This document shows, piece after piece, positions 11,045 to 62,920 of a stretch of 64,000 nucleotides of DNA (position 1 is its first letter; the number at the start of each line of letters is the position of its first letter). The notes below the pieces were generated by a model, which saw nothing but the letters and a program-made list of their open reading frames with translations, did not search any database and was not told the origin of the DNA. The DNA is from Flaccisagitta enflata (Eukaryota): assembly GCA_965153355.1 (NCBI GenBank), contig OZ231126.1, forward strand, positions 15,624,001-15,688,000, given 5' to 3'. The position numbers and the translations under genes were made by a program.

Positions 11045-11079
<35 letters not shown>

Positions 11080-14767: not shown

Positions 14768-14832
<65 letters not shown>

Positions 14833-16679: not shown

Positions 16680-17410
<731 letters not shown>

Positions 17411-18617: not shown

Positions 18618-19277
18618 TATCCGCCCCTGCCCACCCGTCCGCGACTGGTATTGGCCGTGTATCCGGCCTTGTTATATTTCAAATAAGGTTACTGACCGAC
18701 AAACGACGCAGGGTGTAGAGTCGCGTGTCCGTGACTCAAAAAATAATTGTTGTAATGTATTGGTGTTCTTTTGTCCTTTTTATTCGCTATGTTAGTCTTT
18801 TGTTATCAAGGTAATTTCGTTTTTATTGTAAATCACTAGGGAGAGTATGCTGACACAAAATTGATCTTTTGTCATTCTTCTCTTATCGGTCGGCCCAGGT
18901 GAAATTTCAAAAAAAATTTTTTGTCAATTATGTAATTTTTGTTATTTTACTTCCGCCGGTGCCCATTCCCCGCGTCACGGGATTTTGCTATGACCCTCGT
19001 GCCTCACAGCTACTCTTTTCTTTTTAGTTGCGGACACGCAGCTCCAAAAGAGGCTCTGTCCGTCCGTCGGTCTGTTGGTCCGTGGTGATCGAGTTGGAAA
19101 GTGTGAAAATGCGCATTTCCGCTCCTGCCCACCCGTCCGCAACTGGTATTGGCCGTGTATCTGGCTTTGTTAATGCATGAAAACAGTGTTGGCAACCTTA
19201 ATATTTAGTGGTGCCAACTGGCTCAATTGCTGTTTAATTTTCTGTTGCCTTTCAACTGCAGACATCCGCACGTTGCC

Positions 19278-22200
19278 ATGTCACGTCGAATCCGTCTATC
19301 CAAACCGTCTCGTCCATCTGGGTTGCCTAAACAACAAAGCCGCAATACCGTCGACGATGAAGAGGACACAGATTCCGTCGTAATTGAAGATCTACCGGAC
19401 AAGGAGTTACTGGAGAAGTTAAGACGGAATGTTAGGAGTCACGATGAGGTGGAATGTACCTTCGCGTCTGCGATCAATTCTATTGAACAAAAGTAAGATT
19501 AGGATGTTATTGTTGTACACTTTTTATTCTTTATAAGAACGACATTTTTTTGGCTAAAGCCTTCAAAGGAGATAGGGATAGCTACTGATAAAAAAACGAT
19601 GTTCTTAATTTTGGGTCAATTTCAAGCCTTGATGTTCTTATAAACTAGGTTCCTATAGAAATTAAAAAGTGGTTGTTGATTTAGAATTTGAAGTTGTATT
19701 GTTGTCTTGTGATAGTTATTGCTGACATTGTTGTCGGGAAAAAAGTCGAAGTCAGTCTTCGACTTTTTGTCGGGAAAAAAGTCAAAGTCAGTCTTCGACT
19801 TTTTGACATATTCGAGAGAAACAGGGTTTTCATTTTCTTATGCGGAAGTTGAGCATCTCCACCGACCGATTGGGGCCTCCAATGAAATTGATAGGGTAAG
19901 TAAATTTGATAATTCTCTTTCATTTGGCGCCAAGCAGAATGCTCTACGACAAATATTTTTCGCGCTATGATTTTTTAAAGATTTATTTATGAAAAATTCG
20001 AATGAAATTTTTTTCGATTTTTTACGGTTTTGTGTAGGATCAATAAAAGAGTGTATTTATGTTTGTTTGAGCATGCAAATACAAGAAAACATGTTTATGA
20101 GCACAGCTGCTCATCTGTGAGGGCGTTTTTGAGCATTTCAGCTCATTTAGCTAACTTAGCTCAGTCTGTTCTTTCTGATTTCAAATATGATAAGTGAATG
20201 AATATTTTTCAACTTGTTTTAAGCAAAAAAACATGTCAGTGAGCAGAGCTGCTCATCTGTGAAGGCGTTTTAAAGTATTCTAGCTCATTTAGCTCATTTA
20301 GCTTGTGCTTTTTCTCTGATTTTAAACAGGATAAATAAATTAATGTTTTGATTTAAGCATGCAAATACAAGAAAGCATGTCAGTGAGCAAAGCTGGTTGT
20401 CTGGTTGAATCATTTTGATTATTTTAGCTCATCTAGCTCATTTGGCTCAGTTCTATTTTTCTCTGATTTTCAGTGCAGTCAATACATACAATTGCTTTTG
20501 ATTTGATCTAACAAAATTTCAGTGACTGAAGAATGTGAAAAGTGACCAATGCTTACGACTTTTTTCCTCACGGCGACAGCCGCCATTACTGGTAGCTACA
20601 TGTAGTTGGCGTTTTAATGGTCGTTGGTGTAGTTCTTGTAGTTCTGATCGTTGTTATTGTTCTCGTCTTATCACAAAATTATCGTGATGCTTTGTGCTTT
20701 AATTCATAGCTCGAACAAAAGTTCTATGTATGGTGGTGTCTCTTTTGTGATATGGTGGATATGTTTTGAACGGGTGAATGTTTGACTTATTGAAGCTAGG
20801 TCAGCAGGCAGTGTTGCCCTCCCTTACTAGCTGCATGAATTTGAGTTTTATGTAGCATGAATTTGAGTTTTATGTAGGATGAATTGTTGCACATGTCACA
20901 TAGTAGTTGTTTTTTCCGATAAAACGCTAACTCGGCCAAACAATCGCTTTTGTAGGTGGGCCCACGATTTGAACTCCTCCGGCGAATCTATGGCGACCGT
21001 CTTCAAACTCGAGGATGAGGATGGCGCTTCTGCGAGCGGAAGTCGGACAAAATCGGCGAAAAAGTCCCAGCAGCAACAATCGCGTCGTCACAACAAAAAG
21101 ACGAAAGCGCCTTCAGAGGCGAGCTTCGCCAGCGACGTTAAATTCAAGTTGGCACCTTCGACTTCGACGAAGAAAAGTCCCGTCGAAAGCTCCAACAAAA
21201 GCTTACAAGTGCCTTTGAAGAGAGTTATGGTCGGTGGCGGCGGCGGAGGAGCAGGAGCAGCCGATCACGGAGCCGACGATGATGATTTGGACGAAGATTT
21301 CCTGGGCATGTCATTAGCGGATCTCAATGGTACCGCTACTATTTCATCTTCCGAAGATTCCAAACGAAATATCAAGATCATCCCATCGTCGTCGTCGAAT
21401 AAACACGCCTGCACCGCGATGGCGACTCCGTCATCTTCTGCCGCCGCCGCCGCCGCCGCCGCGTCATCGAGAGACAATGGCAACAAGTTCGTCTTCAAGA
21501 CGCCTCTCACGGCGGCAAAGACGTCAACGGCGAAGAAAGGCGTTCCTCGACGAAGTTACGACGATCGACCGAGTCAGTCTCCTCTGTTGAAATCCGCCAT
21601 CACACCTTTATCTGCCTCGCGACAAAATGGCGCCTCAAAAGACGGTCGTATCGCCGTCGATGACGTATCCTCGTCCTCTCTGCCTCTTCCTCGCGAATCT
21701 TCCGCCACTTCCTCGATGATGGGCGGATATTTCGATTCTCCGCTCAATTCCACGCCGGCGCCGACCTCCTCCCGACGCAGAAGGCCCTCTATATCGGCGT
21801 CTAGCGCCACCAGCGCTTCCACATTTCGCGACGTCGATGATTCTACGGTGGCCAGCGATACTTCCGTTTCTACACGACGCGCAACAGCTTCTTCCCCGAC
21901 GAGAGTGCTGCATCTGACGGAAAGTGAAGACGATGGTGGCGAGGCGTTGGGGGATGAGGCGACGCTGGGAGACGGCAGTGAGGGGGAAGAGGAGGCTGGA
22001 TTGCAAGAGGAGGAGGAGGCAGCGGCGGAGGCGGGTGTCGGCAATGGAATGTATCATACTACACCAACTTCATTTGCCACGGAAGATGCTGCTGTTGTTG
22101 CTGCTGCAAACATCTCGTCCGCGCACGAATGTTCCACCGCCGGTCCACATTTGATCGCGACGGATGTCGATGATACTGTCGTCGATACGGCGGATGAATT

Positions 22201-23863
22201 TCCGAGTGAGAGGACGTTGAGATCGCGAAAGATACGAGTGGAAGGCAAAGCTGACAAGGAAAACGTTTCTCCGAGGAAGAAAGACAAAGTGCCGGGTAAC
22301 GACTCAGTGGCGTCACGGAGAATTTCTATCGGCGATGAATCTACAACGCCGCCGACGATTCGCGGCGCTTCTGCCATGACGACGCCGACGTTGAATGAAA
22401 TGCAGCGCCGAATAGGTGCCCCAGCATCGCCCAAGCAAATGCGACAACCTCAGCAGCAACTCCCACAGCCTCAGCAGCAACAACCGCGGCCCTCGTCACA
22501 GAGTCAGCCGCGAATTCCCTTGGCAGAAACTCCTGATATCGGTTCTAACGCCCACGTCAAACTTGACGGAAATTCTTTATTAGAGAAAACCACCGCTCTT
22601 TCCACCTCTCAACGCGCGGGATCCGCTTCCTTGCCACCTCGCCGTATCACCGCCATCCGGTTGGGAAGTCCCGAAAAAGTCCCGCGACATACCTCCCAAT
22701 TTTTTTTCAAGCCTTTGATTTCTCAAAACGGAACAAAAGTCGATCGAACACAATCGCGACCGACGGCTGAAGAGCGAGTGGTGAGAAAAGAAGATGAAAA
22801 TGGGGCCAGGGGGAACGAGGTCAATCGGGAATTATCGAAATCCAATCTTGAACTCGATGATGATGATATCGATGACGATGGTGAAAGTGATGATGTTGTC
22901 GTCGAGGAGGAAGAGGAGGAAGAGGAGGAAGAGGCAGATGAGGAGGAAGAGGATGAAGAAGCAGCAGCGGAGGAAGAAGATCAAAGTGACGACTTGGAGG
23001 TGCTGGCAGCCCCTGATGGTAAGGAAAATCAGTCGATCCGTCGTAATCGTGACAGCGAGGAAGTGGATATCGATGATTCCCAGCTTTCGCACATGCTTCG
23101 GACTAGCATTGTCAGTTCCAACGATTCTTTTTCAAATCGACGTCGAGAACAGCGAGAACAGCAACAACAAAAACATCAACGACAACAACAGCAAAACCGG
23201 AAGCAGAAGCATAAGGAATCCACAGTCCTTAAATCTCTCGATAACACCCATTCGCGCCGTAACCCGTTGTCCAATTCGTCTAATCAAAACATCCGCATCA
23301 ACAACAACAAAGACGAGGACTTTTTCGGCAATTTCAAAAACATTTTCGTATCGATGAAACGACTTCAAGGCGAAAACACGGAGATGAGGTCGGAAATGGA
23401 AACTCTTTGCGACAGCCTAGATACGATGCGGGAGGATTTGACGACGACTCAAACGACGTTGGCCGAACGAGAAGAACTGGTGGACAAACTGAAAGAGAAA
23501 CTGAAGCAGAGGGAGCGAGTGTTGGCCGACGAAGTCTGTAAGAATTCGAGATTGACGTCAAAGATTGTCGATACAGAATCGCTATTAACGACGTGTAAAG
23601 AAGAGGCGGAGAGAGAAAAGGACGACGCCGCCGAGAAGCTACGAGAGAAAGAGACGCTGTTGGAGGAAAAGCGACGAGAAAACGAAGAGCTAAACGAGAC
23701 CAACGGCCAGCAGAAACGGAAGATTCTGGATCTGACGCAGACTTTGGATGTCGTGAGGGAGAAGTATCGCAAGACGCTGATGGCCGCCAAGGCGAAAGCT
23801 GATCGAGAGTGGGAAGAGTTCCAAGCTTGGGAGGAAGCCAACGGCAGACCCGTCCAGGATTGA
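19278..23863 (+). CDS. 1040-aa low-complexity protein with acidic tracts and a C-terminal coiled coil; possible Scm3/HJURP-like N-terminal helix
   Basis: Exons 19278-19492 and 20956-23863. Donor AA|gtaag at 19493 and acceptor ttgtag|G at 20955 join in phase 2 (...SIEQK-WAHDLN...) into the 994-aa ORF. Ser/Thr/Pro-rich middle, Glu/Asp tract near 22860-22990, coiled-coil-like C-terminus (LQGENTEMRSEMETL...). Confidence 0.85.
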
Positions 23864-24216
23864 ATGATGTTACTCTGGTTATTCCTTGTATCTTATGAAT
23901 ACGTGGGGTTCATTCTGATATTGAGGGTTGGAGGCTTCACTTATTATTACATGTATACTTTCGCTCGTTAATGCCGTGTAAATTATTTTGTTAAATTTCG
24001 ACGAATTTTACTTGACGTTCTACGTTATAAACCGTTACAAACATTTGACATGGGCTCAAATTTGTGCCATTAACCAAAACCATGTATAAACGTTTTACCA
24101 TTCCATTTGTTTTTAACGTTGCCTAAATCTAAAGTTTGTTTCTTAATTTTCTTCTCGATTCCATTTATCGTTTAGCTCGTTATCTTTGATTAAGTCACGT
24201 GACCAAATATAGCGCC

Positions 24217-24591
24217 ATGAGCGGCGTAGTGTCATTATGGAGACTGACTCCTCGACTGCTTCGTCATTGTCAAAAGAACTCGGTTGCTCTTTCTTCCATC
24301 GACCGATCGGGTAACAATGGCGCTTCATCCATCGAGACTCAGTCTACCACTGTAACTTCGGCACAGCCATCCCGCGGCGTTGCATCGTACATAGTGTTAT
24401 TGCCGGAAGTGCCGCCGGATTCGCCGGAAACCAATCCCGTCATGAGACTCGATTCTCTTCCCGCGTTTAGTGAAATAACCCCCGTCGACTGCGTCAATGG
24501 AGTTGCCAAATTATCCATCGAGTTCGAAACGGAGTTGAGTTTACATTCGGAGAGGCTAACACAGATGCCCAACACATTCGAATCGGTGATT

Positions 24592-24676
<85 letters not shown>

Positions 24677-27600
24677 AATCTGGTCTACTGCGCTATTTTG
24701 GTAACATCATTTGCATAATGTCGTTGTATTCATTTGTGATGAATCCTGTTTCCTGCTTGGGGCATTTTCACCCCTCATGCGTAGATTTTCTACTACATTA
24801 GTTTGTAGGACTGGTAGGACAGATTTCATCAACTTTATGTCCCGCATCACCAATGTTAGGCCCACGACAAAGTTACCCTCATTGTCATTGACATAATGTA
24901 TCATTTGTCATTGTTCATCCTGTGCCCCATTATCATTACCGGTTGCTGGTTCTCTTCGTCCTCAGATATGAGGCACACCCGGTTCATGGTTCATATACTG
25001 TATGCTTCTTTCCTTGTATACTTGTATATATCTACGCCTCTCCTCCGCGTTCACACATCATTCTGGCGTCTGCATTTACTCGTCCTTCATTCCCTACTCA
25101 TTCGCTCATCTACATCCATACGTCCGTCTACGTCCTCAAAGGTACATCCTAACAGATGGTACTCGGCCTAAGCTCAAGGGCATATCGCACTTGGGCAGAA
25201 TCTGGGTCTGTCCGTTCCTTCCCAGACACCACCATCCAAACCTCGACATCTGACTCATTCTTACTCGACTCCACGATTCGCTTTACACCTGGTCTCTCAT
25301 CATCTTCGTACGCTAAAGTGTCGATACCCCAGGTCTGCCTGACGAGCCTAGTTGTGCACCCCCCGGGTAGGGGAAACCTTATCGCCGGACATGTCCACAA
25401 TAGCGCTGGGAGCGTTGGGAGCTACAGCTTGCGGGGGCTCCGGATCGTACGTCGTAGCTTCTGTTCTCGGGGGTAGCCTTTGGCTACTGTGGCAAACGAA
25501 ACGGGGCAAGTTTTCAACTGATGGCAATCCCGTCGATACCACAGGAGAATCCTATTTCACCGGCCAGACCAACTCTTTGCTGCCTACAGCAATCCCCCCC
25601 TTCGCAATACGGGTTACGGCGGGTGATCCCTCGGCATGGGGATCTTAACGGGATCCGTCGGTTCTGTCCACGCCCGGCAAAGGTGCTGTATAAAGCGACG
25701 AGGTTCCTTTTCGTCTCTTCTCTGTGCTCATGTCTCTGTCCACCTCGACTTCTGCATCAAAGACTTCGGTTTGGATGGTACTCTATTCACTCACATTGTA
25801 TATAAAAACATTGAGGAATGCGGAATTGTAAATAACTTTTGTGCTGAACCGGGTGTGTGCTCTTTGAAAATAGGAATTTCTGTTAAAAGACAAAACTGTT
25901 TTACTTTGGGGAATTTAGCTCTCCACATCATCACAATCATCCCCAATTACTACCTTAGCGTCCGCGGCGTGTTTCGAAGTGCAGCGTGACCGCGTCTTGG
26001 TCTCTCGGTTAGCTGGAACACCACGCAGGAAGGCCGCGTGGGACCGCGTTGGACCAACGAGATTAGCAGGAAGTCCGCGTCTCGCCAATTAGCAGGAAAA
26101 GACCGCGCCGAGGTCTATAGATTAGCTGGAATTCCGCGCCTTTGACCCACGTTTAGCTGGAATACGCACCCCCGCTTTGGCGTCGCTGGAATACCGCTCG
26201 CCGGGCACAAACCTCTTTAAAAGTGCCAACTGGTGGCCAAACACCAGCTCCAGACCTAGCATTCTATCGCAATCTTGTTTTATGTTTTGACGGACTAATG
26301 TGCTAAGCGAGTTACAAACTACCACTGAACAACCATGCCTGACTTAACACTTTGGTCACCCTAGTCTGGCACTTCATCGGCAGACTTCTTGTGGGAACCA
26401 GATCAATCATTCTGTTATAACATCGCATCGCATCCCCTTGCATCACATCGCATTTTACTTGAAAGCAAGAAAGAAAATAAAAAAAAAAAGTCTTTGGTTT
26501 CGGCTGAAAGTTTGCTAACGCGTTGGATCATTATCCTACCTTGTTTGTTCATGCATTAATTTCATTCATGTCATCATCGTAACTGTGGAGCCTTGGGAGA
26601 ACAAACCTGCAAAGCCCAGACCAAATCTTTCCCTCTTCTCTTTATTCATCACTGCAACAGGCGCAGTCACCAATAGACAATGTCAATGCCTAGCGTCGAC
26701 TCCCGCTATATTGATGCAGCTGCGTGACTGGATTGGAAACCCCCTAACCTCATAACCAACAACTTGAATGCTGCCTGGATGTGTATTACTAGCATGTTTT
26801 GGACTCATCTTTTGCTGCAGGATTTGACTTGGACACCTTTGACGGAACCGCTGTTGGTAAGGTGCAGTGTTGCAGCTTTGGTGCCTCTAAATCTGGATCT
26901 TTACACTGTGGGTTAATGCGGTTTTGCATCTGTTCTCCTCATGCATTTTGATAATTGCCCATTTGCCAGACAAAACTATCCTAAGATCTTGGATGGGGGC
27001 ACTGCTTCCCATCTACCATCATTGCTTTTAACCAAACGTCTGTTGGATCTTGGATGGGGAATTACCTCCCAGCCCTGATCATCGCCTTCATTCAAAGTTG
27101 CATGTTATCATGTTCCTTATTGTTATGCCTCTTCTGGATTTAATCGTAACCCAGACCCAGCTCTTTGCTATTATTACTACCTATTAATGCCATTATACAA
27201 CTGATATGACTTGTATCTGCTCTCGGCACTGCCGGCCATACACTCTTTCGACGCTGGATAATGGGATCTTTTAGCACCTCACTACTGGATAGACCTCCGC
27301 TGCACCACCTCAAATGGGAGACTGCCCTTAATTTTTAGCACCTCACTACTCATCTATGGTTGACTACTGCCTAATCCCTGAATCACTGTCACACCAACGT
27401 ATTGTCACAGCATCACCATTGAGTGCTGCCGCATGTATTACAGAATCTGGAATCTCTCCACCATCTGCTTTGTTACTTCGCCTGAACTTCTGTTTAAAAC
27501 CCAGATCCAATCATTCGCCACACCAGACTTCAGAATCTCTTGATGTTAACGGAAGAATACTGCCATGAATGGGATATTTGCTTGAACGCAAAAAAGTCGA

Positions 27601-30600
27601 AAAACATGTTTGGAAAAAAACATCCTCTTCCGTCGCTTCAGCTGGAGGGAAAAAACATTGACTGGGTCGAGAAATGGACCTACCTTGGTATCACCGTCGT
27701 CTCACACAAACGCTTCAATTGCTGCATTGAGGAGAAAGTGAAATCTTTCTATAGAAGCGCAAATGCTATCCTGAGGATTGAGGGTCGTTCCAACGACCTC
27801 GTAATGCTCCAACTCTTAGAGACCCACTGTGTGTCAATTTTGAGTTATGGGATAGAAGTAATTCACGTTGCAAATGCAGACACTCGTCGCAAGCTTCGCG
27901 TTGCGTACAATTCGATCTTCCGTCGTGTATTCGGATACCGCATGAGCGAATCAGTCACACAACTACAACACGCCCTCGGTCGACCGACCTGGGAATGAAC
28001 TTGTGGAAAAAAGAAAAGCCAAGTTTCTAGCCTCTGCTCGCGAGTCTACGCTGTTAAAACAGTTTCTGTAGAGTGTTTCACCTGAGACACGTCTGATGTC
28101 GCTCCCCCCCCCCACATTCCCCTTTTGTTCATTTGCTATTGTTTTATTTGAAATTATGTCACCGTGCTACATGAATGCTTCATGTGAATAAACTGGATAT
28201 ATATAAGAGGAGGGATTTAAGCGATGTATTGAGATGATCCACTCTAAACCGTAGATGGCGGATATCATCGTTATCTGACCCCCATGGATTCCTTGGTCTT
28301 TCGACATTACCGCTTACCCTTCCTCAACGCATTGGACACCTGTGACGGTTTCTTTTGGCGGCTGGCTACAGGTGCTGAGGCGCCGCCTTGCCTCATTCTT
28401 GACCAACTTAGATTATTTAAACTGGATTTGAAGAAACCCAGACCCAATTTTTTGCGACATAAAGACAATAGCCACGAAGTTATCAATCACACTTGTCAAT
28501 TCTGATTACAGCAGCCTTCTAGTCAACTCCTGCTGCACAACGTACTGCACAAACACCATCTCTCCATGGTATTCTTTTCCAGACAAAACCCTCTTTGATT
28601 TGTGTATCGAGACGATCCACTTCAAATGGGGTACTGCCTCCAGTATTTAGGTAAGTTCCTACCTAACTGCCGCGGAAAGCGAACAAAATGCCCTTTGCCT
28701 GACTGACCAGATCCAACCCTCGCATTCTTCTATTTGCCGCTTTGGACACCTGGGATGGTTTAGTGATGGCTGGTACACCTGCGATTGTACTACAACATCA
28801 TACTCAACCCTTCTACGCCGCCGTTGTATCGCCCTAACATTGTCACCGCACCTCCATTGCCTCCTGGCGAAATCGCCGCTGCTAGACAACGCCATTCAAC
28901 AACGCCATTCAACAATGCTATTCAACAACGCCGCCCAACAACGCCGCCCAACAAAGCCGTTCAACAACGCCGTTCAACAATGCCCTTCCACAACGCCGTT
29001 TGACAACGCCATTTGACAACGCCGCTTGACGACGCCGCTTGACGACGCCGCTTGACAATGCTGTTTGACAACGCCGTTCAACAACGCCATTAAACAACGT
29101 TCAACAACGCCATTTGACAAAGCCATTCGACAACCATGTTCAACAACGCCGTTCAACAACACCGTTCATTAACCATTACCAGACTCTCCCCTCAAAATAG
29201 ACATACTGGCAATCATTATCTACGGAGCCGCGTTTTGGGCCTCTACCCTTTGGAAATCCTGTGGGCGTCATTGTTATCAGGGTGTTGGGCCTCTCCGACA
29301 CCCTGAAAATCGTCATTTCCAGACAATCCTGCGGTGGAACCATCTTGGTGGTGGTGGAACGTGGCGTGGTGGCGACTCCTCATCAGGGGGCTGTGCCTTT
29401 CTGGCACCCTTACAATTATCGCTACCAGACAATCCTTCTGCGGTGGAACCATCTTGGCAACTGTGGAACGTGGCGCAGTGGCACCTCATCCTAACCAAAC
29501 CAAACCTTCAACACAGAGCCCAGACATTTGACTTCACGGCCAGTGTTGTCTCTTGTTCGGGACGAACAAACTCAAAGAGGGTAGCCTCTGTTAGGCCCAC
29601 GACAAAGTTACCCTCATTGTCATTGACATAATGTATCATTTGTCATTGTTCATCCTGTGCCCCATTATCATTACCGGTTGCTGGTTCTCTTCGTCCTCAG
29701 ATATGAGGCACACCCGGTTCATGGTTCATATACTGTATGCTTCTTTCCTTGTATACTTGTATATATCTACGCCTCTCCTCCGCGTTCACACATCATTCTG
29801 GCGTCTGCATTTACTCGTCCTTCATTCCCTACTCATTCGCTCATCTACATCCATACGTCCGTCTACGTCCTCAAAGGTACATCCTAACACCAAACGTGAT
29901 CATAACTCTCTTGACAACGAGATTAAATCAGTTTTATTCAGGCAGATTAAATTCATTCCTAACCAGCTCGTTTCCCCTTTTCAATTCCTTTCCGAAATAA
30001 ATCGATTCAAAGATTTCTGGAAGGTGACCGTGATGGCTCTGTCCCTAGATAATGCTGGTTGCCTCTTGACTATGGAAGTGACAGGTGGTTAATTCTTCTG
30101 GAAATAACCACCCAGGGTGTGTAACGCTTGTTGTCCATGGTTTTGTAAACTTTTTTTTAGGTGATCCATCCTCTCGAGGTCAAAGCCATGCCTCTCAACT
30201 ACGCATGGAAGACGTTGAAACATCTCAACTACGTCAAACGGTCGGATAAATTCCCAAAGGCTTTCCGTCGCGTTCACCCACACGTGATGGCGGCGAAAAA
30301 CGAGAAATGGTCCAACAAGATCTTGTACAAGGCGGTGCAAGATCTACGCAGCGGCAACAGCGCGGGCGGGGACGGCAGCCAACGACTCGACGAGTATCAG
30401 AGTCGCGTCTTGGACGTCTACGAGCTCAACGGCAGACTCAACGGCGTCCAACTCAACGAACTCGACGCCGAGAAACTCAAATATCATCTTCACAATCTCA
30501 ACGAGGAGAAGCAGCTGTTTCGCGATCAAGTCATGGAACACGAGAGAGCCTTCACGTCGACGTTGGCGGATCCCAACGACGTCGCCGGCATGCCCGAGTT

Positions 30601-35413: not shown

Positions 35414-35732
35414 TTTTAAACCCAAGAACGGCGTTGGGAAAGATAAATGTAGAATTCGATATTGCTCTTTCTCTCTCGGGATGACCATCCTCCCATCAGC
35501 GTACCCTAATCTTATTTATTGAGACTTTGGAGGATTTGCTAGAATCCTAGTAAGATTGTGTTGTTCTCCAAGAGAAATCGGTCAATTTTGTTGCGGTATT
35601 TTTCCCCCCCGCTAATCGTTTTTTTTTATAAAGGAGCGAGGATAAAACTTTATCGTTCGTGAGGACAACGGATGATCTTGTTGATCCTTGAATGATTCCT
35701 AAGAACAAAAAAAGAAAGATCAGAGAAAAAAG

Positions 35733-43755
<8,023 letters not shown>

Positions 43756-46025: not shown

Positions 46026-46114
46026 TTAGGGTTAGGGGTAGGGTTAGGGTTAAGGTTGGGGTTGGGGGTGGTTTTAGGGTTAGGGTTAGGGTCAGGACTA
46101 GCGTTAGGGCTAGG
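46026..46114 (+). repeat. Short degenerate telomere-like (TTAGGG)n array
   Basis: TTAGGG units mixed with GTAGGG, TTAAGG, TTGGGG and TCAGG variants. Confidence 0.8.
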
Positions 46115-50390: not shown

Positions 50391-50846
50391 ATGGTTCCAT
50401 TGACCTTATTTCAATGTTGGTACGCGCTGAGTGGACCGAGGCTGCATCGGATCCGGGACTTGAATGGATACGGTCTTCCCTATGTACCGAATAATCTGGA
50501 AAAGGTATGACATGAACTCTTGACTTAAGTTTCCTTTTTTTGATTTCGGTTATGTACATATATTAAGCTCTTACTCCATTTCTCTTCAGACTGGTGATTT
50601 TTTCATCAAATGGATGGTGACGATGTATAACGTGGCCTATGGTATCTCACCATTTCTGATGTGGATGCTGTATCGGCGAAACATGTTGAGTCAAGAGGGT
50701 TTTCTGACAATGTTCAAGTATGGGATCTCAGCAAGCATTTTACTTACATTTTCTTCTTCTCTTCGCGCAATTGGAAGGCTTGCAAACAGGTAAAATTACA
50801 GTAGTAGTTGTAGTTGGCAAGCAACTAGCTTTCTTTCTATCTTACT

Positions 50847-50945
<99 letters not shown>

Positions 50946-53191: not shown

Positions 53192-53222
<31 letters not shown>

Positions 53223-53252
53223 GCAACAATAACAACAACTCTTTGCTGCCTT

Positions 53253-53305
<53 letters not shown>

Positions 53306-53803
53306 CTCTTTTTGCTTTAGGTCGTCGCGCCAAGATACGGACACGCGATGGCAACGATATCGATACCATGTTCGTGGATCGACGAAATCGATCCACGCAC
53401 GCATCGGCCGGCGGCAATCCCGCCGACGGACAATTCCTCGTGATTTGTTCGGAAGGCAACGCCGGATTTTACGAGGTGGGATGCATGAGCACGCCCATCG
53501 AATCCGACTACAGCGTATTAGGGTGGAACCACCCTGGTTTCGCCGGAAGCAACGGAACCCCATTTCCGGACCAGGAACAACACGCCATCGACGCCGTCTT
53601 ACAGTACGCCACGTATCGGCTTGGGTTCCCGGAAGAGAAAATCATTCTGTTCGCGTGGAGTATCGGCGGATACACGACCTCCTTCGCCGCCATGAATTAC
53701 CCTCGCGCACGGGCTGTAATTCTTGGTGAGTGTGTTTTGATATGTACACGTGTTTTGGTTTGTGTGACTGATGATTAATTGTGTGACTGTGCCTTCTTCT
53801 TCG

Positions 53804-53894
<91 letters not shown>

Positions 53895-56800
53895 ACGCGC
53901 GCGCGTGCGTGTGGTTGTACTTATGTGTCAGTATCTGTATGCCTGTATCACTGTATCTGTGTGCATGAATTTGTGTGTCTGTATCTGTGTGCGTCTGTCC
54001 ATTTGTGTCTGCACGTTAGTCTGTTTTTGTGTCTCTTAGTGTGTTTACGTCTGTGCCTTTGTGTCTGTGTGTTTGTCTGTGTGTTTGTGTGTGCGTTTGT
54101 GTCTTTGCTTATATACTGAAAATTTTCATCATGTTACCCGAGGTCAACCTTAATGGAGTTTTTGACCCATCTGTGTCATTTTCTATCCAGTGGTAAAAAG
54201 AAAAAAGTTTTCGCTAGGACAGCATTTATTTTTAAACGGGTAATGTTCACGCCCTGAACATTACCCGTCTTAAAATTTCGTTACTCCGCTAGTTGGTCTT
54301 CAAGTGTAGAACAAAGCATGTTTTGCCAAAAACCACAACGCCGTGAGCAATTCCCAACACAATCTTTTTCCCTTTTTCCGCCTATCCCTATTCAACTTTG
54401 CCGCCTTTGTGTGGCTAATTGGTCGAGTCCTCGGTTTTCCTTGTTTGCTTTGTTGCCTGTGGCTATTTTGCTTTCATTCCCTCGTCTTATCTAAGCGCTT
54501 TTTCCCCCTTCCCCGAAATATAGCACCCCACCATTCGGGTGTGTCAATCTGCAAAACATTAATCCATGAGAGTATAACGCTAGGGCATCATGGGGTTACT
54601 CATTTAAATGCTTTCACCGTTTTTCTTTAAAGCTTTTCAGAAAAGTGCCTGGGTTAATCGTATCAACTTCAATGAAATAGCATAATGGTCTTTTTTGGTT
54701 GTGGAATTTGTTTCTTGGCGAACGAGAGTGCAGACATTGCATTAGATTTCGATCGTGAAAAAAAAACGGTTGCCGAATGAATTTTGGAAAAAGAAAAACG
54801 GTGATCGTTCTTAAATCAATAGTCCCATCTTGCGTCAGCGTTATAGTCTCAAATTCAGTCATCACCCGTATTTGACACACCTGACCCCACCATGGTCCAT
54901 GGCCATGGTTCTTCTCTTAAGGTTTTGAATGTCATTTCCATGTATGAGGCTTTATCTCAGGTGGCAGCTCGGAGAAATGGAGAAGAATTTCCATTTTTCC
55001 CTGTATTTGTCGAAACACGATTCGCTTCTGAACTTCCTTGGGGTCAGGCTGTTTATGCTCAAAGGACAAAAAATGCTTTTCAAAAAGACTCAAAAACAAT
55101 AACATGAAAATAAGTTTTAAGTCATTCGTCATGGTCCCGGACGGACCAACTAACAGAGGCCCCCTACTTGTACGATGTGAAAATCAATGACGCATCATCC
55201 TCCCTATCTTGAACTCGGCCTTGTAACAGTTGTCACACTCCTCCTGAGAGCGACCTCGCCCTCTATACTTATTCCCAGAGGAATGATAACGTTGATTGCA
55301 TGTAATTTGCATATCGGGCTCATTTTATTGTCGTTCAGTTGCAGCTCGTCCGACTATCATGATTACGACTCTTTCGTGTCTCTCTTTCCCTTCCTACGCC
55401 CACCGGCGATGGTGGGCGAGAGAAACCGATAAAAAACAAGGCCAATCCTGAAGTCGCGTGCGGGATGTAAATAACTTGATCAATTGAGATGTATTTTGTT
55501 TTGATGGCTGAAAATGACATTGAATGACTAAGAATGACTTTGAGCGACTGAAACGACAAAAAAATGATTAACTAGTCATCCAAGGATCGCACATGGTCAG
55601 CGAGTACCCGATGCCCTGCTAAGGATGGCCTGGAAGAACAGAGAGCATGGGGGCAGCGGCCCCAAGGAGCCAAATGTCCTGTCGTTTACAAGGTGGGCTG
55701 AACGTCATGAGAGCATTAAGAAGGCTGACATGCTTGATTTTGCCAGGCCTGAGCAAAGGCTGATTTAAGAAGATGAAGCTAATTTTGGAGCTGAAAGAGC
55801 TGATTTTTGGCCTGACAGGACTGATTTTGGGCCTGAGAGGCTGATTTTGAAGCAGGAGAGGGCTTTGAGATTTTGGGCTTGAGAAGAGGGCTGATTTGCA
55901 GGGCTAATTTGGGAGCTAATTTGGAGGCTGAAAAGAGCTGATTTTGGGCCTGAGAGGGCTGATTTTGTGTGTCTGAAGAGGCTGATTTTGGGCATAAAGA
56001 GGGCTGATTTTAGGCTTGAGAGGGCTGTTTTGGGCATGAGAGGGCTGATGCAGGCCTGAGAGGGCTGATTTTGGGCTTGGAAGGGCTGATTTTGGGCTTG
56101 AGAGGGCTGATTTGGGGTCTGAGAGGGGCCTCGGGGGGGGACGTACGGACGTACGTACGGACGTCTGGAAATTCACCCCTGTGTCCTACAGGACATCGGC
56201 CCTTTGGGGCCGCTGCCCAAAAAGTGATAAAAAGAAGTTTGACAAACGGACGGATCGACGGATGGACGGACGACGCGGCATGTAGAGTCGTATGCACGCG
56301 ACTGAAAAGTGAAACGCGCGCACGCGACGTTTTGTCCCAGCCTTCTTTTCTTCTAGAACCGGGGTCACGTGACTCTTGTCAACTGCGTCATCTGAGCCTT
56401 TTACTTCGTATCTAATTCCTTCCATGTTTTCTCCTTTTGGAGGGGTTTGGAGATTAGGATATTGGGGTGGGATGATGTATCTGCTCTCAAGAGCTTGAGG
56501 AAAATGGTGAATCTTACGTGTAAGTTTCCTAACACGGTGGTGCGCCTCATACATTACTATTTACTAACTCAGGATGTAGAACAGATCAACGATAACGCAT
56601 AATTTTTTTTTCTTATGACACCCGACGAGCTACAAAGAAATAATCCTACATGGACTTCACATGCAGCGGTACCCGTTTCCTCTTTGAATGCGATGCAAGG
56701 AATAGAGGAAATGGGCTCTTGGGGCCGCTGTCCTAAAGGAGAAATTAGAAACTAACAACTGACGCGAGGTCACAATATCGTTGCGGACGGGTGGGTAGGG

Positions 56801-59661
56801 GCAGCCAACCCCATCCAGACCCAATGCTCCACCCAACCCCCCCTTCCAACATAGACACGTAAACATAAAGCTTCTAAAATGCTCGTTTTCCCACTTTTTG
56901 ACTAGTGTCCACAGACGGATGGATGGACTGACCAATGGAGGGACGGATGGACGGAAAAAGCCTCTTATAGAGTTGCATGTCTGCAACTAAAAAGAAATAC
57001 ATAACCTGAGCTACACACAGAGGAGGAAGAGCGTTACTAATTCTCCTAAAAACAAGGCCGGATACACAGCTACCGAAGTGGCGTGGAGGTGGGCAGGGGC
57101 CATATTTGAGGTCACTGAACAGTAGGGGCAGGAGCAGTGGGGTCAAAGAAATAAAATCACAAAAAAGTAAACTGTGACCGACCGGCCGACCGACCGACCG
57201 ACGGACCGACCGGCGGACCGACCGACCGATAGACGGACGGAGTGGATCAAAGAGTCGCGTGAACGTGACAAAAAAGTCGCGTGCATGCGACTAAAAATTT
57301 TTGTCATGCACTGCGTGACATTTTACAAATGTTAAAAAGTGTTATTTTCCGGGGGCGTCTTTTCATGGCATTGAATGTTAAGTGTAAAACCTGTAATTTG
57401 GTTTAGTTGGTAAAATCATGCATGATAATTTAACTTCATTTTGAGGAAGAGAATGTAAAGATTAAGTACGTTGATAGGGTATGCGATACCACTGCCCTCC
57501 TTTATTTGTAAATGTAAGAGCAAATGTGTTGCCTAAGAGAGCTGATTTGAAGCATGACAGAGATTTTTGGACGTCAGTCTGAGAGGGCTACGTCAAGTCT
57601 CGGGTGGGCTAATTTGGGGCAAAACGCACTGATATTAAGGACGAATGTACAGATGGAATAAGGGACAGGCAAAAATTCCTACAGGACTTCATCCCCTTCA
57701 ATTCGGGGCCGCTGCCCTTAAAACTGAAATGAACGAAAGTGATATTTCCAAGCGCGTGCAGTAGATGTCGTCTATACTTGGAAATATGCGGGCCCTCATA
57801 TCCTAAATACCATTTGTGCAAATGAAATGAAATTGTGTGTTTATAATGTTTATTTCCTATAGGGTTAATACTGGGGTATGGCAGCTCTGTGGATATGAAA
57901 TTCTCTTTAATATATACTAAATCAAATTCACTCAGCTGTGTTAGCTGTTGGAATTGGTCCAGTGGTTAACTCTGATTGATTATGAACAGTTTATTTAATG
58001 ATTCCAGGTTTGAATTGCTGGTTGGTTTTGAAAATCAAGCAAATAGATGAGGCTGAAATTCTGCAAAAATGCGATTGATCCTTCAGTTTTATACAATTTT
58101 TTAGTCGCGTGCACGCGACTCTACAACCCGCTTTGTCCGCCGGTCGGTTGGTCAGTTGGTTGGTTGGTCACACTTCACTTTTTTATGTTTAATTTCATGC
58201 TAAACCTCACTGATCGCTTAAATGGTCGGTGACATAAATATGGCCCTTGCCTGCTTCGCATGCAACTTCGGTATGTGTATCTGGCCTTGTTTTCTAAGGT
58301 GAGCTTAAGGATGCCTTAGCTCATTGTCAACCACTTACTTAGGGTCTTTACGTTACACCAGTAAAATATCAGTCCCCTCACTGTACAGATAGTCAGGTTA
58401 TGAGCTCCCCCGTATTTCCAAGTCTAGACGACATCTGCTGTATTTCCCGGTCTCGTTACCGCCCGATTGCACGCGTTCTAGAATGTCAACGATTTTTAGC
58501 TGTATCATGCTCTATCGAACTTTGCGTGGGTTTTTTATTCTCAGACGCGACGTTCGACCACGTACTCCCTCTCGCGCTAAAGCAAATGCCAGACGCAATC
58601 GGCAGTCTCATACAAGACACCGTCGTCAACCACGCAAATCTCAATAATGCGGAAATGATGCAAAGGTTCTCGCACTTTTGAAATTTGGAATTATTTCTTG
58701 TTCATAAAAAGACCAATTAATTACGTAACATGCGCATTACCCCCCTTGTTTTCTGCATCTAACGTTACCATAGATATCAAGGACCGTTCGCGTTGATCAG
58801 AAGAACTAAGGACGAAATGATCTCCACTGTCGGTCCCCCAAATCGAATCAAAGTGTGGTCCAACAGAGGCAACGACCTTCTCATGTCGCTTTTAACAAAT
58901 AGGTGAATTTGTGGCGGAAAATGTTGTTGTTGTTCACCTCCTCCTCCTTCATCTTCCTCTTTCGCGTTTCCCAGGTTTTACCATCGTTTCTGCTCCTCAT
59001 CTCTCGCCTCTATATCTTCCTCCTTTCCATTTTCCTCTCCGCTTCTCCCCTCTTCTTCCTCCCTCTATATCTCTATTTTCTTCTTTTTCTCACCGTCTGT
59101 AAAATTGAACGTGAATGCATTGGTTTTGCTCTTTGATAAGGACACCGATCCAACCGAAAGCACTTTCCAAAAAAGAAAAAAAAAGCAAATTAACAAGAGA
59201 AAACAAAACATCAAGCTTGCAAACAGTAACGGAGCGTGATAGCTCTCACTAATCATTATACTCAAATGAGCAACCAATTCTGCCGAAGCCAGCCTGTCAC
59301 CGTCACGCCATCCAATTCCGTGCTTGTCTTTCCCAGATATCCCATGATTTTCACGGAAGAAACTCGCGATTTCGTTTTGAATTTTCTCGCTTTGGAAAGT
59401 GAGAGTGAACGAGACAGCGCCCTAGCCGACTCGGGCCTCGAGGAGGAAGTTTGTGAGGCCAAATTCCAGTCTTTCGTCAGCGCCTTAGACTCGGAGCAGC
59501 CAATTTTCCCGCTGACTCTGGAACCCTCCTCGCCGGAAGAGGCTAGACACTTGGCGCTGTTTCTGGTGACGAAACACATGCGTCACTTTAACTCTTCTCA
59601 TTGCACGCCGTTGCCTCTACGGTTTTTCGACATGCCCTGGTCACCGGATAAACGCGTGTGA
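50391..59661 (+). CDS. ABHD16A: Phosphatidylserine lipase ABHD16A (BAT5), ~548 aa
   Basis: Exons 50391-50504, 50590-50789, 51904-52256, 53321-53725, 58545-58665, 58774-58902, 59337-59661, in frame. Motifs GPRL, YDFDFWAWPVDF, DGNDIDTMFVDRR, LVICSEGNAGFYEVG, GWNHPGF, WSIGG (nucleophile), LDATFD, LIRRTKDE, SNRGNDLL, HCTPLP. Confidence 0.93.
51061..51811. mobile_element. Tc1/mariner-type MITE in ABHD16A intron 2
   Basis: TA|CAGGGTGTATCACATCAAACAGGACAAAAGAAAACGATGTAT ... ATACATCGTTTTCTTTTGTCCTGTTTGGCGTGGTACTCCCTG|TA. Confidence 0.82.
53806..53892. repeat. (TG)n microsatellite
   Basis: Perfect run in ABHD16A intron 4. Confidence 0.95.
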
Positions 59662-60674
59662 CGTTGTGGGGACATTTATAACATTTAGAGAGAGAAAAAA
59701 TATGGAAACTTTTGATACAGTGTTTTGATCAGAATCGTTGTTATTACTGCGTGATTGGATTTTGAATGGAGCGAAGTTGATTCGGGGAGGAAGTAGGAAG
59801 CTGAATGTCTCTTTCCTACCCTTTTGAATGTAATATTTAAAGTGGAATGCGATATCATGCCCGATCAAGTAATAACACACTCCGCTTTTACATCGACTAA
59901 ATTGATTTTCATACACTCCTATAACTGGTGCCATGTAGCTTTGATTTCTGTCATTATTTTGCCGCTTTCAGTTAAAAAAAAGATAGGGCGCGTTAACCAC
60001 GTGCACCAATCTGTGATATGTCTGGCTTCTCTCTTGGTTGCTAACGCGTACGCATGAACGTGTGGGGAATCTAATATGCCATGAAAACTTGCCAAAAAGC
60101 TTCGCCGAAACAAAGATCACACTTAATTGTTCATCTTAACACACCGTCGATCAGAATTCCCTCCATTTTCCTTTTTTTTCATCGCCATCTTCTTTCTGTC
60201 GCTTTTCCTTGACGGTTTGGCGTTAAGGGCTAATGATTCATTTTTTTCGCTTCGTGGAACAAACCTTCACGCATAATAGCATACAAGCTCACAAAGATTA
60301 ATCAATAGTTACTAACGAGAAGATGACTACGTCCTACACCGCCTGTGTCCTTGAGTCTTTCTGTTTTTCATCTGTGATCTCAATCCCATACGATTTTCGT
60401 CATATCTACGATTTCGTTCAGACTCCTTGGAGGAAAACCTGTTTAAGCGAGCGAGTTTAAACAAACAAAAGACCAAAAAATCTAAATAGACGAAGATCGT
60501 TCAAAAATACAAAAATAGAATTCAAAAATAAAAAAAGTGTCGCAACATTGTATGTGATAGCTGCTGTGCTATTACAAAGAGGGAAAAAAGAAGAGCAGGC
60601 GCCGGCTAAAAAAAAAGAAATTTCAAGGAAGAATCTCCTTCTCTCATCAATGTCATCGCTGCGTCGTCATCACA

Positions 60675-62920
60675 ATGAGCACGATCGCCCGATCGCAGGT
60701 GTCCGACGTATCGGACGTCGGCGGCATCCCTGGGCTGCGACATCAATCCCTGCTGCAACAGCAGCAGGCTGCGGGCAATCAGCCGTCCACCCCGATTCTA
60801 TCGTCGACGCGGTCGCATCTGCTGTTGCCGCAGTCTCGGGAAATGCGGCGTTTGGAGTCGTCATCTTCCACGCACTCGACGGCCTCCGTCGCGCGCCACT
60901 GGATCGAAAGTTGCTTCAAAAAGAGGGAATGCGTCAAATTCATCCCCTCTTCCAGCCGCGCATCCCGCCCTAGTCAGGCTGCCTCTGTTTTGGCGTCTGA
61001 CGCGTACGAAGGTGATTTTTGTTTGTTGTCGTCGTTAAGACGTTATTGACTCTGGGGCTCATAATGTTTTGTTGAACTGTGGTGCAGTGCTCATGGTCTT
61101 TGTCATTTCACAGGCAATATGACCCCGCCTCCGACACGTGGCGGTGATCGTTGCGGCTGCGGGCGTTTTTACGCGGATCACTCTTACCTCGACTGCGGTT
61201 CTACCACAAGGAACCAACCTGCGCGTCATCTCACCGTGCCCAGCGGCGTTCTGGGCATTCCCGGCGCTCCGACCAAAGATCGCGAGAAAAAGTGGTCCAT
61301 CAAACATCACACTCAAGAATTTCCCACCGATGCCTTTGGCACCATCGAATTTCAAGGAGCGCCGAGTCCCTCGCGAGCGCAGGTTGGGCATGGCATTCGG
61401 TTATTTGGTTTTGATCTCTATTCTGCTCTTTTATCCCGTGTTTGCCTCAACCGTAAGTTTGCTCATGTGCTCTTTTACTGGTTTTGTGTTGATAATCCAA
61501 TCTTCTGTTATTTGATTGATCTGTTGTTTTTTGATTGATCTGTTGTTTTTTGATTGATCTGTTGTTTTTTGATTGATCTTTTGTTTTTTTATTGATCTTT
61601 TGTTTTTTTATTGATCTTTTGTTTTTTGATTGATCTTTTGTTTTTTGATTGATCTTTTGTTTTTTGATTGCTCATAACTTCTTTGTTTGCTCCTTCATGC
61701 TTTGATTGCTCTTCTGTTGTTTGATTGCTTTTTTGTCCTTTGAGTGCTTTTTGGTTCTTTGCTTGCTCTTATGCTCTTATACTCTCCGCTCAATCATACC
61801 TGATTTGTGAAGCTAGAGAAAGCTCTAAGTCTATCCATCCCTTATCCCTCTTTCCTTATGTTCCTCAATTCAGTACATTCGTTTGGCCCACGACACTCGA
61901 TCGGATAACGTCATGGCGCTGTTCAAGCGCCAGTGGAAAGTGGAGTTGCCGAAACTCGTTATATCCGTCCATGGCGGTATCGCCAATTTTGATCTGCAAC
62001 CCAAGCTAAAGAGGATGTTCCGTAAAGGTTAGGTTTTTGAAAAAAGGCCAGCAGGTGACGGCGATTTTATCTGAACTATTGTCAAAAGTAGGGATGTGGA
62101 AGCGATTGACCGCTTCCGATTTAGAGGATGGGATAGCTACTAGTATTTGAACTGTAAAATGGAAGCTGAAGCGGAAGCGGTGGAAGCGGCATTAAAATCA
62201 ACCGCTTCTACATCCCTAGTCAAAAGAGGGAGTTGACACCATGCTCTTGTCTGTGAAAGATCAAAACACTGATGTAGATACGTCCTGAATTTGTCTTTTT
62301 TCTACTCCGTCTCAACAGGTCTTTTGAAGGCTGCCAAGACCGCGGGAGCTTGGATCATTACCAACGGAATGTCGACGGGAGCGGTTCGACACGTCGGCGA
62401 CGCCTTATGCCAGCTCAGCTGCAAGTCGAGACAGAAGATTGTTACGATAGGAATTACCGCGTGGGGAGTCGTGGAAGCCAAAGACTCTCTGCTCGGTCAG
62501 GACGTGGAAGCTCAATATCATCCGGTGAGTTGAGAAGTTTTGAGATCTCAGGCATTGATGAATAGGTCTTCGGAAGCTGTTAACAACTTGGTGAAGGATA
62601 TTGTGACAGCTTTTCACTACTGTAGTCTGCACAGGGTGAATCTGCGAAAGGGAAATCCAAAGGTCTCAGTATTGATGGCGCGCTCAATACGTACATCTTC
62701 CTTGTCGCCCCGTTTTAGGCAATCAACCCCAAGTCATCCAACACTTGCCTCAATTCTACCCACACACACTTTTTGTTGGTGGACAATGGAACCGAGGGTA
62801 AATACGGAGCGGAAATCTTTTTGAGGAAAAATCTCGAACGTCACATTTCTCGTCAAATGCGTTTGACGACGAGGGGACGTCGCCACGGCGTTCCGGTCGT
62901 TACCGTCGTCTTGGAGGGAA
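60675..62920 (+). CDS. TRPM: TRPM-family cation channel (TRPM1/3-like), N-terminal exons only; partial
   Basis: Exons 60675-61011, 61114-61382, 61874-62027, 62319-62524, 62719-~62920. Motifs [105 protein letters not shown]. Confidence 0.9.
62089..62218. mobile_element. 130-bp hAT-type MITE in a TRPM intron
   Basis: TIR TAGGGATGTGGAAGCG / CGCTTCTACATCCCTA; perfect 8-bp TSD GTCAAAAG (62081-62088, 62219-62226). Confidence 0.88.

Follow-up and report, generated by a model that had tools for sequence, protein, structure and literature searches.

Spliced-leader-resolved operons are described in chaetognaths, where the available text on Spadella cephaloptera (genome 1.05 Gb) gives a distance of 3 nt only from a poly(A) site to the acceptor of the next gene (PMC2481426). 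For Paraspadella gotoi, the accessible part of the report states that operons hold 18% of genes, that the longest contains nine genes, and that operons were called at <250 bp between gene models (PMC12460157). The gene cluster analyzed here lies in a 64-kb stretch of DNA, hereafter the window. It resembles the chaetognath operons (RPS14-PCNA of S. cephaloptera and those of P. gotoi) in its co-oriented, unrelated housekeeping genes, in a poly(A) site of the upstream gene that all but coincides with the start of the next one, and in the setting of a large, repeat-rich genome that is not compact. It is unlike them in that a spliced leader is present there, whereas none was seen at this cluster among 21 of 93 loose contig ends. 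The P. gotoi criterion uses gene models (PMC12460157); UTR-aware distances at this cluster cover the 3/4 and 4/5 spacers only.

Nematode SL2-type operons are alike in having a polycistronic precursor and co-oriented genes of mixed function, but the available text describes intercistronic regions of ∼100 nt and a specialized SL2 (PMC7986045); the gap here is ≤50 nt or negative, and the source animal appears to be planktonic, marine, and not a nematode. Tunicate operons (Ciona intestinalis, Oikopleura dioica) share the near-zero intercistronic distance, and tunicates are described as using a single leader class for monocistronic and operonic genes, the poly(A) site being where downstream genes are resolved (PMC7986045). 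They differ in their compact genomes and introns and, in Ciona, in the prevalence of dicistronic operons. The best 120 matches to the ribose-5-phosphate isomerase A (RPIA) of the cluster included no tunicate protein, and the best named match to its ZDHHC6 fragment was from a mollusc. Conjoined read-through genes of non-trans-splicing animals also give RNA that is continuous over two co-oriented neighbors. Conjoined transcripts usually have the intergenic part spliced out, whereas the RNA at this cluster still contains the spacer, colinear with the genome and terminated by a poly(A) site.

The cluster consists of tightly packed, co-oriented, functionally unrelated genes arranged head to tail. 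As the sequence-only reading had claimed, every locus is on the + strand; Pfam families were detected in five of them (Peptidase_M3 plus TOP_N, Aldedh, Rib_5-P_isom_A, ABHD16_N, and LSDAT_euk of TRPM) and none in gene 1. Co-orientation of seven loci alone has a chance of (1/2)^6 = 0.016 and is not rare genome-wide. The stop-to-ATG distances of 353, 319, 597, 294, and 1013 nt given in that reading were reproduced exactly, the last one separating genes 6/7 and not 5/6. Spacer 1/2 occupies 23864-24216 (353 nt; stop 23861-3, ATG 24217) and contains the palindrome GTCACGTGAC at 24194-24203; spacer 2/3 occupies 35414-35732 (319 nt; stop 35411-3, ATG 35733). Spacer 3/4 runs from stop 43753-5 to ATG 44353 (597 nt, or 660 nt to a second ATG at 44416), spacer 4/5 from stop 45178-80 to ATG 45475 (294 nt), and spacer 6/7 covers 59662-60674 (1013 nt; stop 59659-61, ATG 60675). 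Self-BLAST bore out the repeat-free nature of the spacers, with 0 bases of window-internal repeat in 353, 319, 660, 294, and 1013 nt, and TRF located minisatellites of 1.6-2.2 kb in introns of the cluster genes, in agreement with the introns having been called repeat-rich. Four consecutive stop-to-ATG spacers of 294-660 nt are thus repeat-free, against kb-sized, repeat-filled introns in the same genes. The upstream 19 kb had been described as gene-free; all five tested ORFs there were without a Pfam family, which fits that description and does not prove the absence of genes. Rfam at the gathering threshold gave 0 matches in the 64-kb window and an ARAGORN scan gave 0 tRNAs.

Gene 1 (19278-23863, +, from ORFs) has a first exon from 19278 to ∼19493 and a large exon ending with the stop at 23861-3; it encodes a largely low-complexity protein of no assigned family, for which neither Pfam (0 families) nor ESM Atlas (recognition low) gave a usable lead. 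Gene 2 (24217-35413, +) encodes a neurolysin/thimet-oligopeptidase-like M3 peptidase (Peptidase_M3 1.3e-28 and 2e-34; TOP_N 1.3e-09) with a presequence-like N-terminus; a LINE fragment lies in its introns, as does a minisatellite of 1.6 kb (TRF). Gene 3 (35733-43755, +) is an ALDH3-type aldehyde dehydrogenase with seven exons, defined by tblastn with the spliced 487-aa protein P0133, whose residues 1-487 are covered across all of them: 35733-35990, 36114 to ∼36317, 38057 to ∼38233, ∼38407-38681, 38899 to ∼39120, 43284 to ∼43403, and ∼43539-43755. The last intron is removed at a GT..AG joint in all three metatranscriptome runs. Gene 4 (44353-45180, +) is the single-exon RPIA (Pfam 5.7e-64), with two in-frame starts at 44353 and 44416, the former adding a 21-aa presequence-like extension. 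Its relatives P0001 and P0121-P0125 are 98-99% identical; marine transcripts are 67-99% identical and the closest named proteins 65-66%. The source animal is read as a marine planktonic bilaterian, tentatively a chaetognath. Long and short N-termini both recur among the relatives, in which the presequence is homologous. The RPIA 3′ UTR (45181-45413, +), as given by the reach of one RNA contig, stops 61 nt short of the ZDHHC6-fragment ATG. An origin of RPIA as a retrogene with a fossil leader was ruled out, there being no A-tract after 45413.

The RNA evidence covers 43200-50840 and comes from three metatranscriptome runs (X1, X2, and X3) of one study; such contigs cannot reveal RNA starts, and a contig over two genes is no demonstration of a single transcript. 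Depth over 43710-44219 was 18-40 in all three runs, and the ALDH3-RPIA spacer is transcribed throughout, leaving no untranscribed gap between the two genes. DNA carry-over is argued against because the GT..AG intron is removed and several intronic bins have zero depth. A single X1 contig (record 2) is colinear over 43743-44780. In X2, one contig (record 9) covers 44114-44365 and continues with 21 A; the next (record 10, RPIA) begins at 44391, fully aligned, with no contig bridging the two, and record 11 aligns over 45048-45413 and carries 30 further letters that do not align. The ALDH3 3′ UTR (43756-44365, +) therefore occupies the whole spacer, with poly(A) addition at ∼44363-44365 and no canonical AATAAA ahead of 44365. 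The poly(A) site at 44365 is 12 nt past the RPIA ATG at 44353 and 50 nt ahead of ATG 44416, a short poly(A)-to-next-gene distance of the kind by which operon spacing is judged; by the same measure the RPIA contig end at 45413 faces the ZDHHC6-fragment ATG at 45475.

Contig sizes may point to a longer RNA as well. A single JGI contig, 3089 nt long, carries the RPIA variant P0122; the longest contig for the spliced ALDH3 P0133 (487 aa) is likewise 3089 nt, compared with an expected ALDH3-RPIA span of 1464 + 576 + 849 = 2889 nt plus UTRs. Both ORFs most likely lie on the same 3089-nt metatranscriptome contig, the two being equated by size only, and that contig is possibly an assembler merge of overlapping UTRs. 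ALDH3 contigs of 2127 and 1702 nt were also found, and therefore mature monocistronic forms are present too; an RPIA contig is 1053 nt long, and in most relatives RPIA contigs are of monocistronic size (0.9-1.4 kb). In related species no size match linked the two genes (RPIA 3299, 3258, and 1954 nt vs. ALDH3 4255 and 1984 nt). We concluded that the operon idea gains substantial support for ALDH3 to RPIA, from the transcribed spacer, the poly(A) site at the junction, and the apparent two-ORF contig, and that the proposed seven-gene extent is unsupported.

Candidate acceptor AGs had been listed at 19260, 24211, 35702, 44281, 45388/45451, 50374, and 60420, and each is present, the coordinate being the A of the AG. 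The best of the set (19260-19261, +) is 16 nt ahead of the gene 1 ATG and has a pyrimidine fraction of 0.75 over 20 nt, a value reached by just 2.9% of the 3842 AGs in the window, and C at −3; its sequence context would suit either a trans- or a cis-acceptor. The probability of an AG as good and as close at a random position was, for the loci in order, 0.028 (gene 1), 0.137, 0.275, 0.500, 0.019 (ZDHHC6 fragment), 0.161, and 0.568, so that their acceptor-like character is mostly at chance level (combined Fisher p = 0.015, post-hoc). Among the 21 AGs of spacer 2/3, none reaches a pyrimidine fraction of 0.65 with Y at −3. Divergence of RNA from the genome was checked at 44281, 45388, 45451, and 50374. 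Colinear contigs cross 44281 (X1 record 2, X2 record 9) and 45388 (X2 record 11), leaving these two unsupported as acceptors, and a role for 50374 is contradicted by both contigs that reach it, which read colinearly through (X1 record 6, X3 record 19); 45451 lies beyond the reach of every record listed.

The expected shared non-genomic leader did not appear on RNA among 21 of 93 loose contig ends. Contigs at the RPIA 5′ end carry no extra letters (X2 record 10), and those at ABHD16 at most one unaligned letter. Raw-read run X11 gave 19 reads at 90-95% identity, all of them partial matches, which indicates a related species. A leader-encoded N-terminal peptide was found in none of 36 RPIA proteins from ∼12 clusters, the N-terminal extensions in relatives being M-initiated presequences or colinear with the genome. 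A scan of metagenome contigs for relatives' RPIA, intended for comparing 5′ ends, gave at least 80 loci; the matches listed were ≤60% identical, and most were on long, seemingly prokaryotic contigs.

Downstream of RPIA, the "seven genes" become six genes and one dead fragment. The fragment (45475-45751, +) is a ZDHHC6 first exon, covering residues ∼1-92 of ∼390 with 56% identity to a named ZDHHC6-like protein. Tblastn with five ZDHHC6 proteins found no other ZDHHC6 exon on either strand of the 64-kb window (other HSPs E ≥ 0.3), motif scans found no HHC motif in the fragment region, and the protein collection yielded no full-length ZDHHC6 from either the same species or one closely related to it (best match 56% identical). 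RNA depth is 0 over 45495-45749 in all three runs. Gene 6, an ABHD16-like lipase (50338-59661, +; ABHD16_N 1.1e-11; ATG 50391, stop 59659-61), starts ∼4.9 kb past the RPIA 3′ end and 4.6 kb past the fragment. Its contigs begin at 50339 (X1) and 50352 (X3) with ≤1 unaligned letter, X1 depth climbs from 3.46 to 24.8 at ∼50340, and the first intron (∼50505-50589) is removed at a GT..AG joint (X1 record 6). Gene 7 is the 5′ part of a TRPM-type channel (60675-62920, +, from ORFs; LSDAT_euk 8.2e-24) that probably extends past 62920.

One operon of seven genes over 19262-62920, or two meeting at the ZDHHC6 break, with all listed AGs acting as trans-splice acceptors, would accommodate the shared orientation of all loci and the good acceptor at 19260-1. 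We regard it as hardly credible: ZDHHC6 is a lone, truncated exon with zero RNA cover, 4.6 kb separates it from ABHD16, where depth rises at ∼50338, and both contigs there read through AG 50374. The TRPM start is 1 kb past the ABHD16 stop, and this 1013-nt spacer is four times the 250-bp P. gotoi criterion (PMC12460157, available part). Genes for signaling and the nervous system, to which TRPM would belong, are reported to be depleted from P. gotoi operons (PMC12460157). ABHD16 and TRPM are most plausibly transcribed as units of their own, and the operon-like unit does not run on through the dead ZDHHC6 exon. We give an even chance to our preferred reading, in which ALDH3-RPIA, or perhaps genes 1-4, make up a short operon-like unit whose mRNAs are separated close to the poly(A) site, with ABHD16 and TRPM standing apart. 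Judging by the spacing, this unit may include gene 1 and the M3 peptidase as well as ALDH3 and RPIA. Transcription of the upstream gene would continue into the downstream gene. Cleavage and polyadenylation would free the upstream mRNA just where the downstream gene begins, and trans-splicing of a spliced leader onto an AG close to that point would supply the 5′ end of the downstream mRNA, an arrangement described for chaetognaths and tunicates. What we infer is a spliced leader, the acceptor actually used, the lack of an internal promoter, and the linkage of genes 1-2 and 2-3.

Ordinary tandem genes with their own promoters in upstream 3′ UTRs, whose overlapping or read-through transcripts were joined by the assembler, would need neither spliced leader nor polycistronic processing, and we rate this, the main rival, at somewhat less than an even chance. 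It agrees with the missing leader at the loose ends examined, with most listed AGs being at chance level, with the sharp leaderless climb in X1 depth at ABHD16 (∼50340), and with an E-box palindrome, GTCACGTGAC, 14 nt ahead of the gene 2 ATG. The ALDH3 poly(A) site follows RPIA ATG 44353 by 12 nt, and therefore long-form RPIA mRNAs, whose presequence is kept in relatives, must overlap the ALDH3 3′ end. However, the X2 ends abut without broad overlap (poly(A) at 44365, RPIA contig by 44391), and four successive spacers of 294-660 nt are unusual beside kb-sized repeat-filled introns and a repeat-rich 19 kb upstream. A stable mature dicistronic mRNA, with RPIA translated via reinitiation or internal entry and no trans-splicing, would account for the spliced contig apparently holding both ORFs and for the colinear X1 contig (43743-44780); it is very unlikely, given the poly(A) end at 44365, the contigs of monocistronic size (ALDH3 2127 and 1702 nt; RPIA 1053 nt), and the many ATGs in the 600-nt spacer that would impede reinitiation. 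We also consider it improbable that ALDH3-RPIA, perhaps with genes 1-4, is a genuine polycistronic unit of a lineage without described operons (not chaetognath, tunicate, nematode, or flatworm), in which, with the upstream poly(A) site placed within the start of the long RPIA isoform, the choice of 3′ processing site would set presequence vs. short RPIA.

If a leader is found, the short operon-like unit would be a documented multi-gene housekeeping operon in a large, repeat-rich marine invertebrate genome, supporting animal operons as more than a by-product of genome compaction, and the poly(A) site at 44365 with start codons at 44353 and 44416 would offer a junction for the coupling of 3′ end formation and trans-splicing. 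If there is no leader, the cluster would be a clean case of promoters embedded in upstream 3′ UTRs and a warning against diagnosing operons from closely spaced same-strand genes with AGs nearby. The CpG observed/expected ratio is 1.27-1.45 in CDS vs. 0.77-0.88 in repeats, which fits the restriction of methylation to transposons reported for P. gotoi (PMC12460157).

No credible minus-strand gene was found to interrupt the run of seven loci in the window. Gene 1 encodes a protein of no family (no Pfam match, and no lead from the Atlas). By Pfam, gene 2 is a neurolysin/thimet-like M3 peptidase, gene 3 an ALDH3-type dehydrogenase (full model via P0133, a spliced ALDH3 protein), gene 4 an intronless RPIA, gene 6 ABHD16-like, and gene 7 TRPM-like; locus 5 (45475-45751) is the first exon of ZDHHC6 by protein similarity. 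The window genes are spliced with GT..AG introns, and microsatellites, kb-sized minisatellites, and dispersed repeats are all present. The stop-to-ATG distances of the sequence-only reading were all reproduced, 1013 nt being that from ABHD16 to TRPM, and so was its description of repeat-free spacers and repeat-laden introns: window-internal repeats occupy 0 bases in each spacer of 353, 319, 660, 294, and 1013 nt, and the M3 peptidase and ALDH3 introns carry arrays of 1.6, 1.6, and 2.2 kb. The spacers between genes 1 and 2 and between genes 2 and 3 are 3′ UTR-sized and repeat-free within a repeat-rich locus.

RNA was mapped to 43200-50840 of the window using contigs from three metatranscriptome runs of one study (X1, X2, and X3); read evidence overall consists of one study's metatranscriptomes and public protein-collection metadata. 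Near-identical RNA was found in marine metatranscriptomes only, part of 43400-46000 being present in 10 runs from 4 studies; the four best runs for this stretch share 0.37-0.49 of words and all come from one study. A further run of raw reads (X11) is from a related species; its 19 reads are all 90-95% alike, so that true 5′ ends are not visible in them. A GT..AG joint removing 43403/4-43537/8 was detected in all three runs, and a second joint removing 50503/5-50587/9 in one. Depth is zero in several intronic bins, which argues that DNA carry-over is small. The ALDH3 to RPIA spacer is transcribed throughout (43710-44219 at a depth of 18-40 in 3/3 runs), and one X1 contig (record 2) is colinear over 43743-44780. 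An X2 contig (record 9) covers 44114-44365 and continues into 21 A; this poly(A) end, at the edge of RPIA, lies 12 nt past the first in-frame RPIA ATG (44353) and 50 nt short of the second (44416). The X2 contig after it begins at 44391 and is aligned in full.

ALDH3 and RPIA were probably also captured on one spliced, dicistronic contig. The RPIA variant P0122 (282 aa), whose N-terminus equals the window translation just upstream of 44353 save for two residues, sits on a single JGI contig of 3089 nt. P0133 is a full-length ALDH3 of 487 aa, 98% identical across exon 1 and matching all seven exons, and the longest of its contigs has the same length, 3089 nt; the ALDH3 ORF, the window spacer, and the RPIA ORF together require 2889 nt. 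Because of the equal length and the fitting arithmetic, which are the sole grounds for the identity, we take the two proteins as probably sharing one contig. Such a contig must derive from RNA, since the gene extends over 8 kb in the genome. In related species, most RPIA contigs measure 0.9-1.4 kb, with a few of 3.2-3.3 kb for which no tie to ALDH3 was established.

In known operon systems the informative spacing is that between the poly(A) site and the acceptor following it: ~100 nt for C. elegans, ~1 nt for Ciona, and ~30 nt for Oikopleura (PMC7986045), and 3 nt for the one dissected chaetognath operon, from a 1.05-Gb genome (PMC2481426). The ALDH3/RPIA junction has an anatomy of this kind. 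This anatomy, together with the 3′ UTR-sized, repeat-free spacers among genes 1-3, favors an operon-like unit of ALDH3 and RPIA, possibly of genes 1-4, resolved beside the poly(A) site, to which we give about an even chance. Full transcription of the spacer, the poly(A) end, and the probable dicistronic spliced contig are what the data show; we infer trans-splicing, its acceptor, that no promoter lies within the unit, and a possible extension to genes 1 and 2. In a chaetognath or tunicate, this would be one more operon of an already known kind; in a lineage without described operons, which we think unlikely, it would be notable.

Contigs show neither RNA starts nor single molecules, and the same ones can be read in other ways. 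It is a serious possibility, somewhat short of even, that a separate promoter for each gene lies within the 3′ UTR of the gene before it and that overlapping or read-through RNA was joined by assemblers. ALDH3 contigs of monocistronic size exist (2127 nt and 1702 nt, the former fitting a 3′ UTR that extends to ~44365), and the shortest complete RPIA contig, of 1053 nt, is monocistronic in size as well; longer RPIA contigs of 4001 nt (an ENA contig with variant P0121), 2794, 1907, and 1404 nt are without explanation. A stable dicistronic ALDH3-RPIA mRNA would agree with the 3089-nt contig; set beside the poly(A) end at 44365 and the monocistronic-sized contigs, it appears very improbable. Several acceptors or several start sites would each yield long and short RPIA. 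The 21-residue extension of the window RPIA (44353-44415) aligns to the end of relatives' presequences, so any mRNA for the long form must start 5′ of 44353 and overlap the poly(A) site of ALDH3; one for the short form could start just past that site.

A single operon of all seven genes, as proposed by the sequence-only reading, is hardly credible. In Paraspadella gotoi, operons hold 18% of genes and comprise as many as nine (criterion <250 bp), and these operons are depleted of signaling and nervous-system genes (PMC12460157). Acceptor-like AGs had been proposed before every start: those preceding gene 1 and the ZDHHC6 fragment stood out (P = 0.028 and 0.019, respectively), whereas the other five did not (P = 0.14-0.57); the combined p for the set is 0.015, post hoc, and 19% of the window's 3842 AGs have ≥60% pyrimidines in the 20 nt upstream. 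The AG at 50374 did not survive as an acceptor, as ABHD16 contigs starting at 50339 (X1, with 1 extra letter) and 50352 (X3) read colinearly across it and neither carries a leader; X1 depth climbs from 3.46 to 24.8 near 50340. Among 21 of the 93 loose ends in 43200-50840, nothing like a common leader appeared where a gene begins. Loose ends cluster at 48909-49081, with very high depth and many differing flanks; depth peaks for the examined stretch at 48810-49320 (121, 81, and 47), where the varied contig flanks look like those of an expressed dispersed repeat and not of an exon of this locus.

ZDHHC6 had been counted as a full gene, and only residues ~1-92 were found. The exon terminates at a GT donor, and the ~300 remaining residues, including the DHHC domain, are missing from the window: tblastn with 5 ZDHHC6 proteins gave no further exons in the 64 kb (all other HSPs at E ≥ 0.3), and motif scans for the rest were empty as well. 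Its best named match is a chiton protein (56%). RNA depth over the exon is 0 in 3/3 runs, and an X2 contig (record 11) follows RPIA and its 3′ UTR to 45413, 61 nt upstream of the fragment's ATG, and ends in 30 unaligned letters. The lone exon could be a pseudogene relic or reflect a deletion or assembly gap. Beside it, 45750-46260 has an X1 depth of 27-30, close to that of RPIA; a degenerate TTAGGG-like array occupies 46026-46114 within this stretch.

The closest named RPIA relatives are 65-66% identical, and matches on unnamed transcript-sized contigs, in about a dozen clusters, reach 67-99%. We read the source as a planktonic marine animal whose lineage lacks annotated proteomes, with a chaetognath as the leading guess. 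Relatives in at least nine clusters encode the long form, in which a presequence-like N-terminus precedes an internal Met (homologous presequences in P0003, P0005, P0009, P0010, P0012, P0152, P0157, P0159, and P0160), and other contigs begin at that internal Met. The conserved presequence suggests that the products of this single intronless gene are dually targeted. P0011 and P0015 have N-terminal parts that show no relationship until a common position (...GIVCVPTSF), which suggests an intron there in related species, retained in these contigs; the window RPIA is without an intron at this position.

The coding parts of genes 1-4, 6, and 7 have a CpG o/e of 1.27-1.45, against 0.77-0.88 for repeat-rich DNA (1-19000 and 24854-29889), whereas GpC is ~0.8-1.06 throughout, in coding and repeat-rich DNA alike. 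The base composition is compatible with methylated repeats and no gene-body methylation; the contrast is the pattern expected under transposon-only methylation, as reported for P. gotoi (PMC12460157), and would fit a chaetognath source. Three intronic minisatellites, at 31807-33409 (28-nt unit, ~58 copies), 36396-37983 (18-nt unit, ~88 copies), and 40901-43082 (24-nt unit, ~91 copies), are strongly strand-asymmetric in base composition. Long ORFs within M3 peptidase and TRPM introns (27498-27995, plus strand, and 63221-63979, minus strand) look like retroelement remnants; Pfam gave no family above cut-off for either. A short dispersed element occurs on both strands (152-272, 8453-9212, 19014-19172, 56747-57210, 58095-58293, and others), with a translation resembling ...PSVRPSV... 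/ ...SAPAHPSATG...; ARAGORN detected no tRNA-like head in it, and Rfam gave no match. One copy stops 90 nt short of the acceptor-like AG of gene 1. Two copies of the perfect 10-nt palindrome GTCACGTGAC, which has an E-box core, are present in the window (24194-24203 and 56364-56373), and the one 14 nt upstream of the M3-peptidase ATG could be a promoter element.
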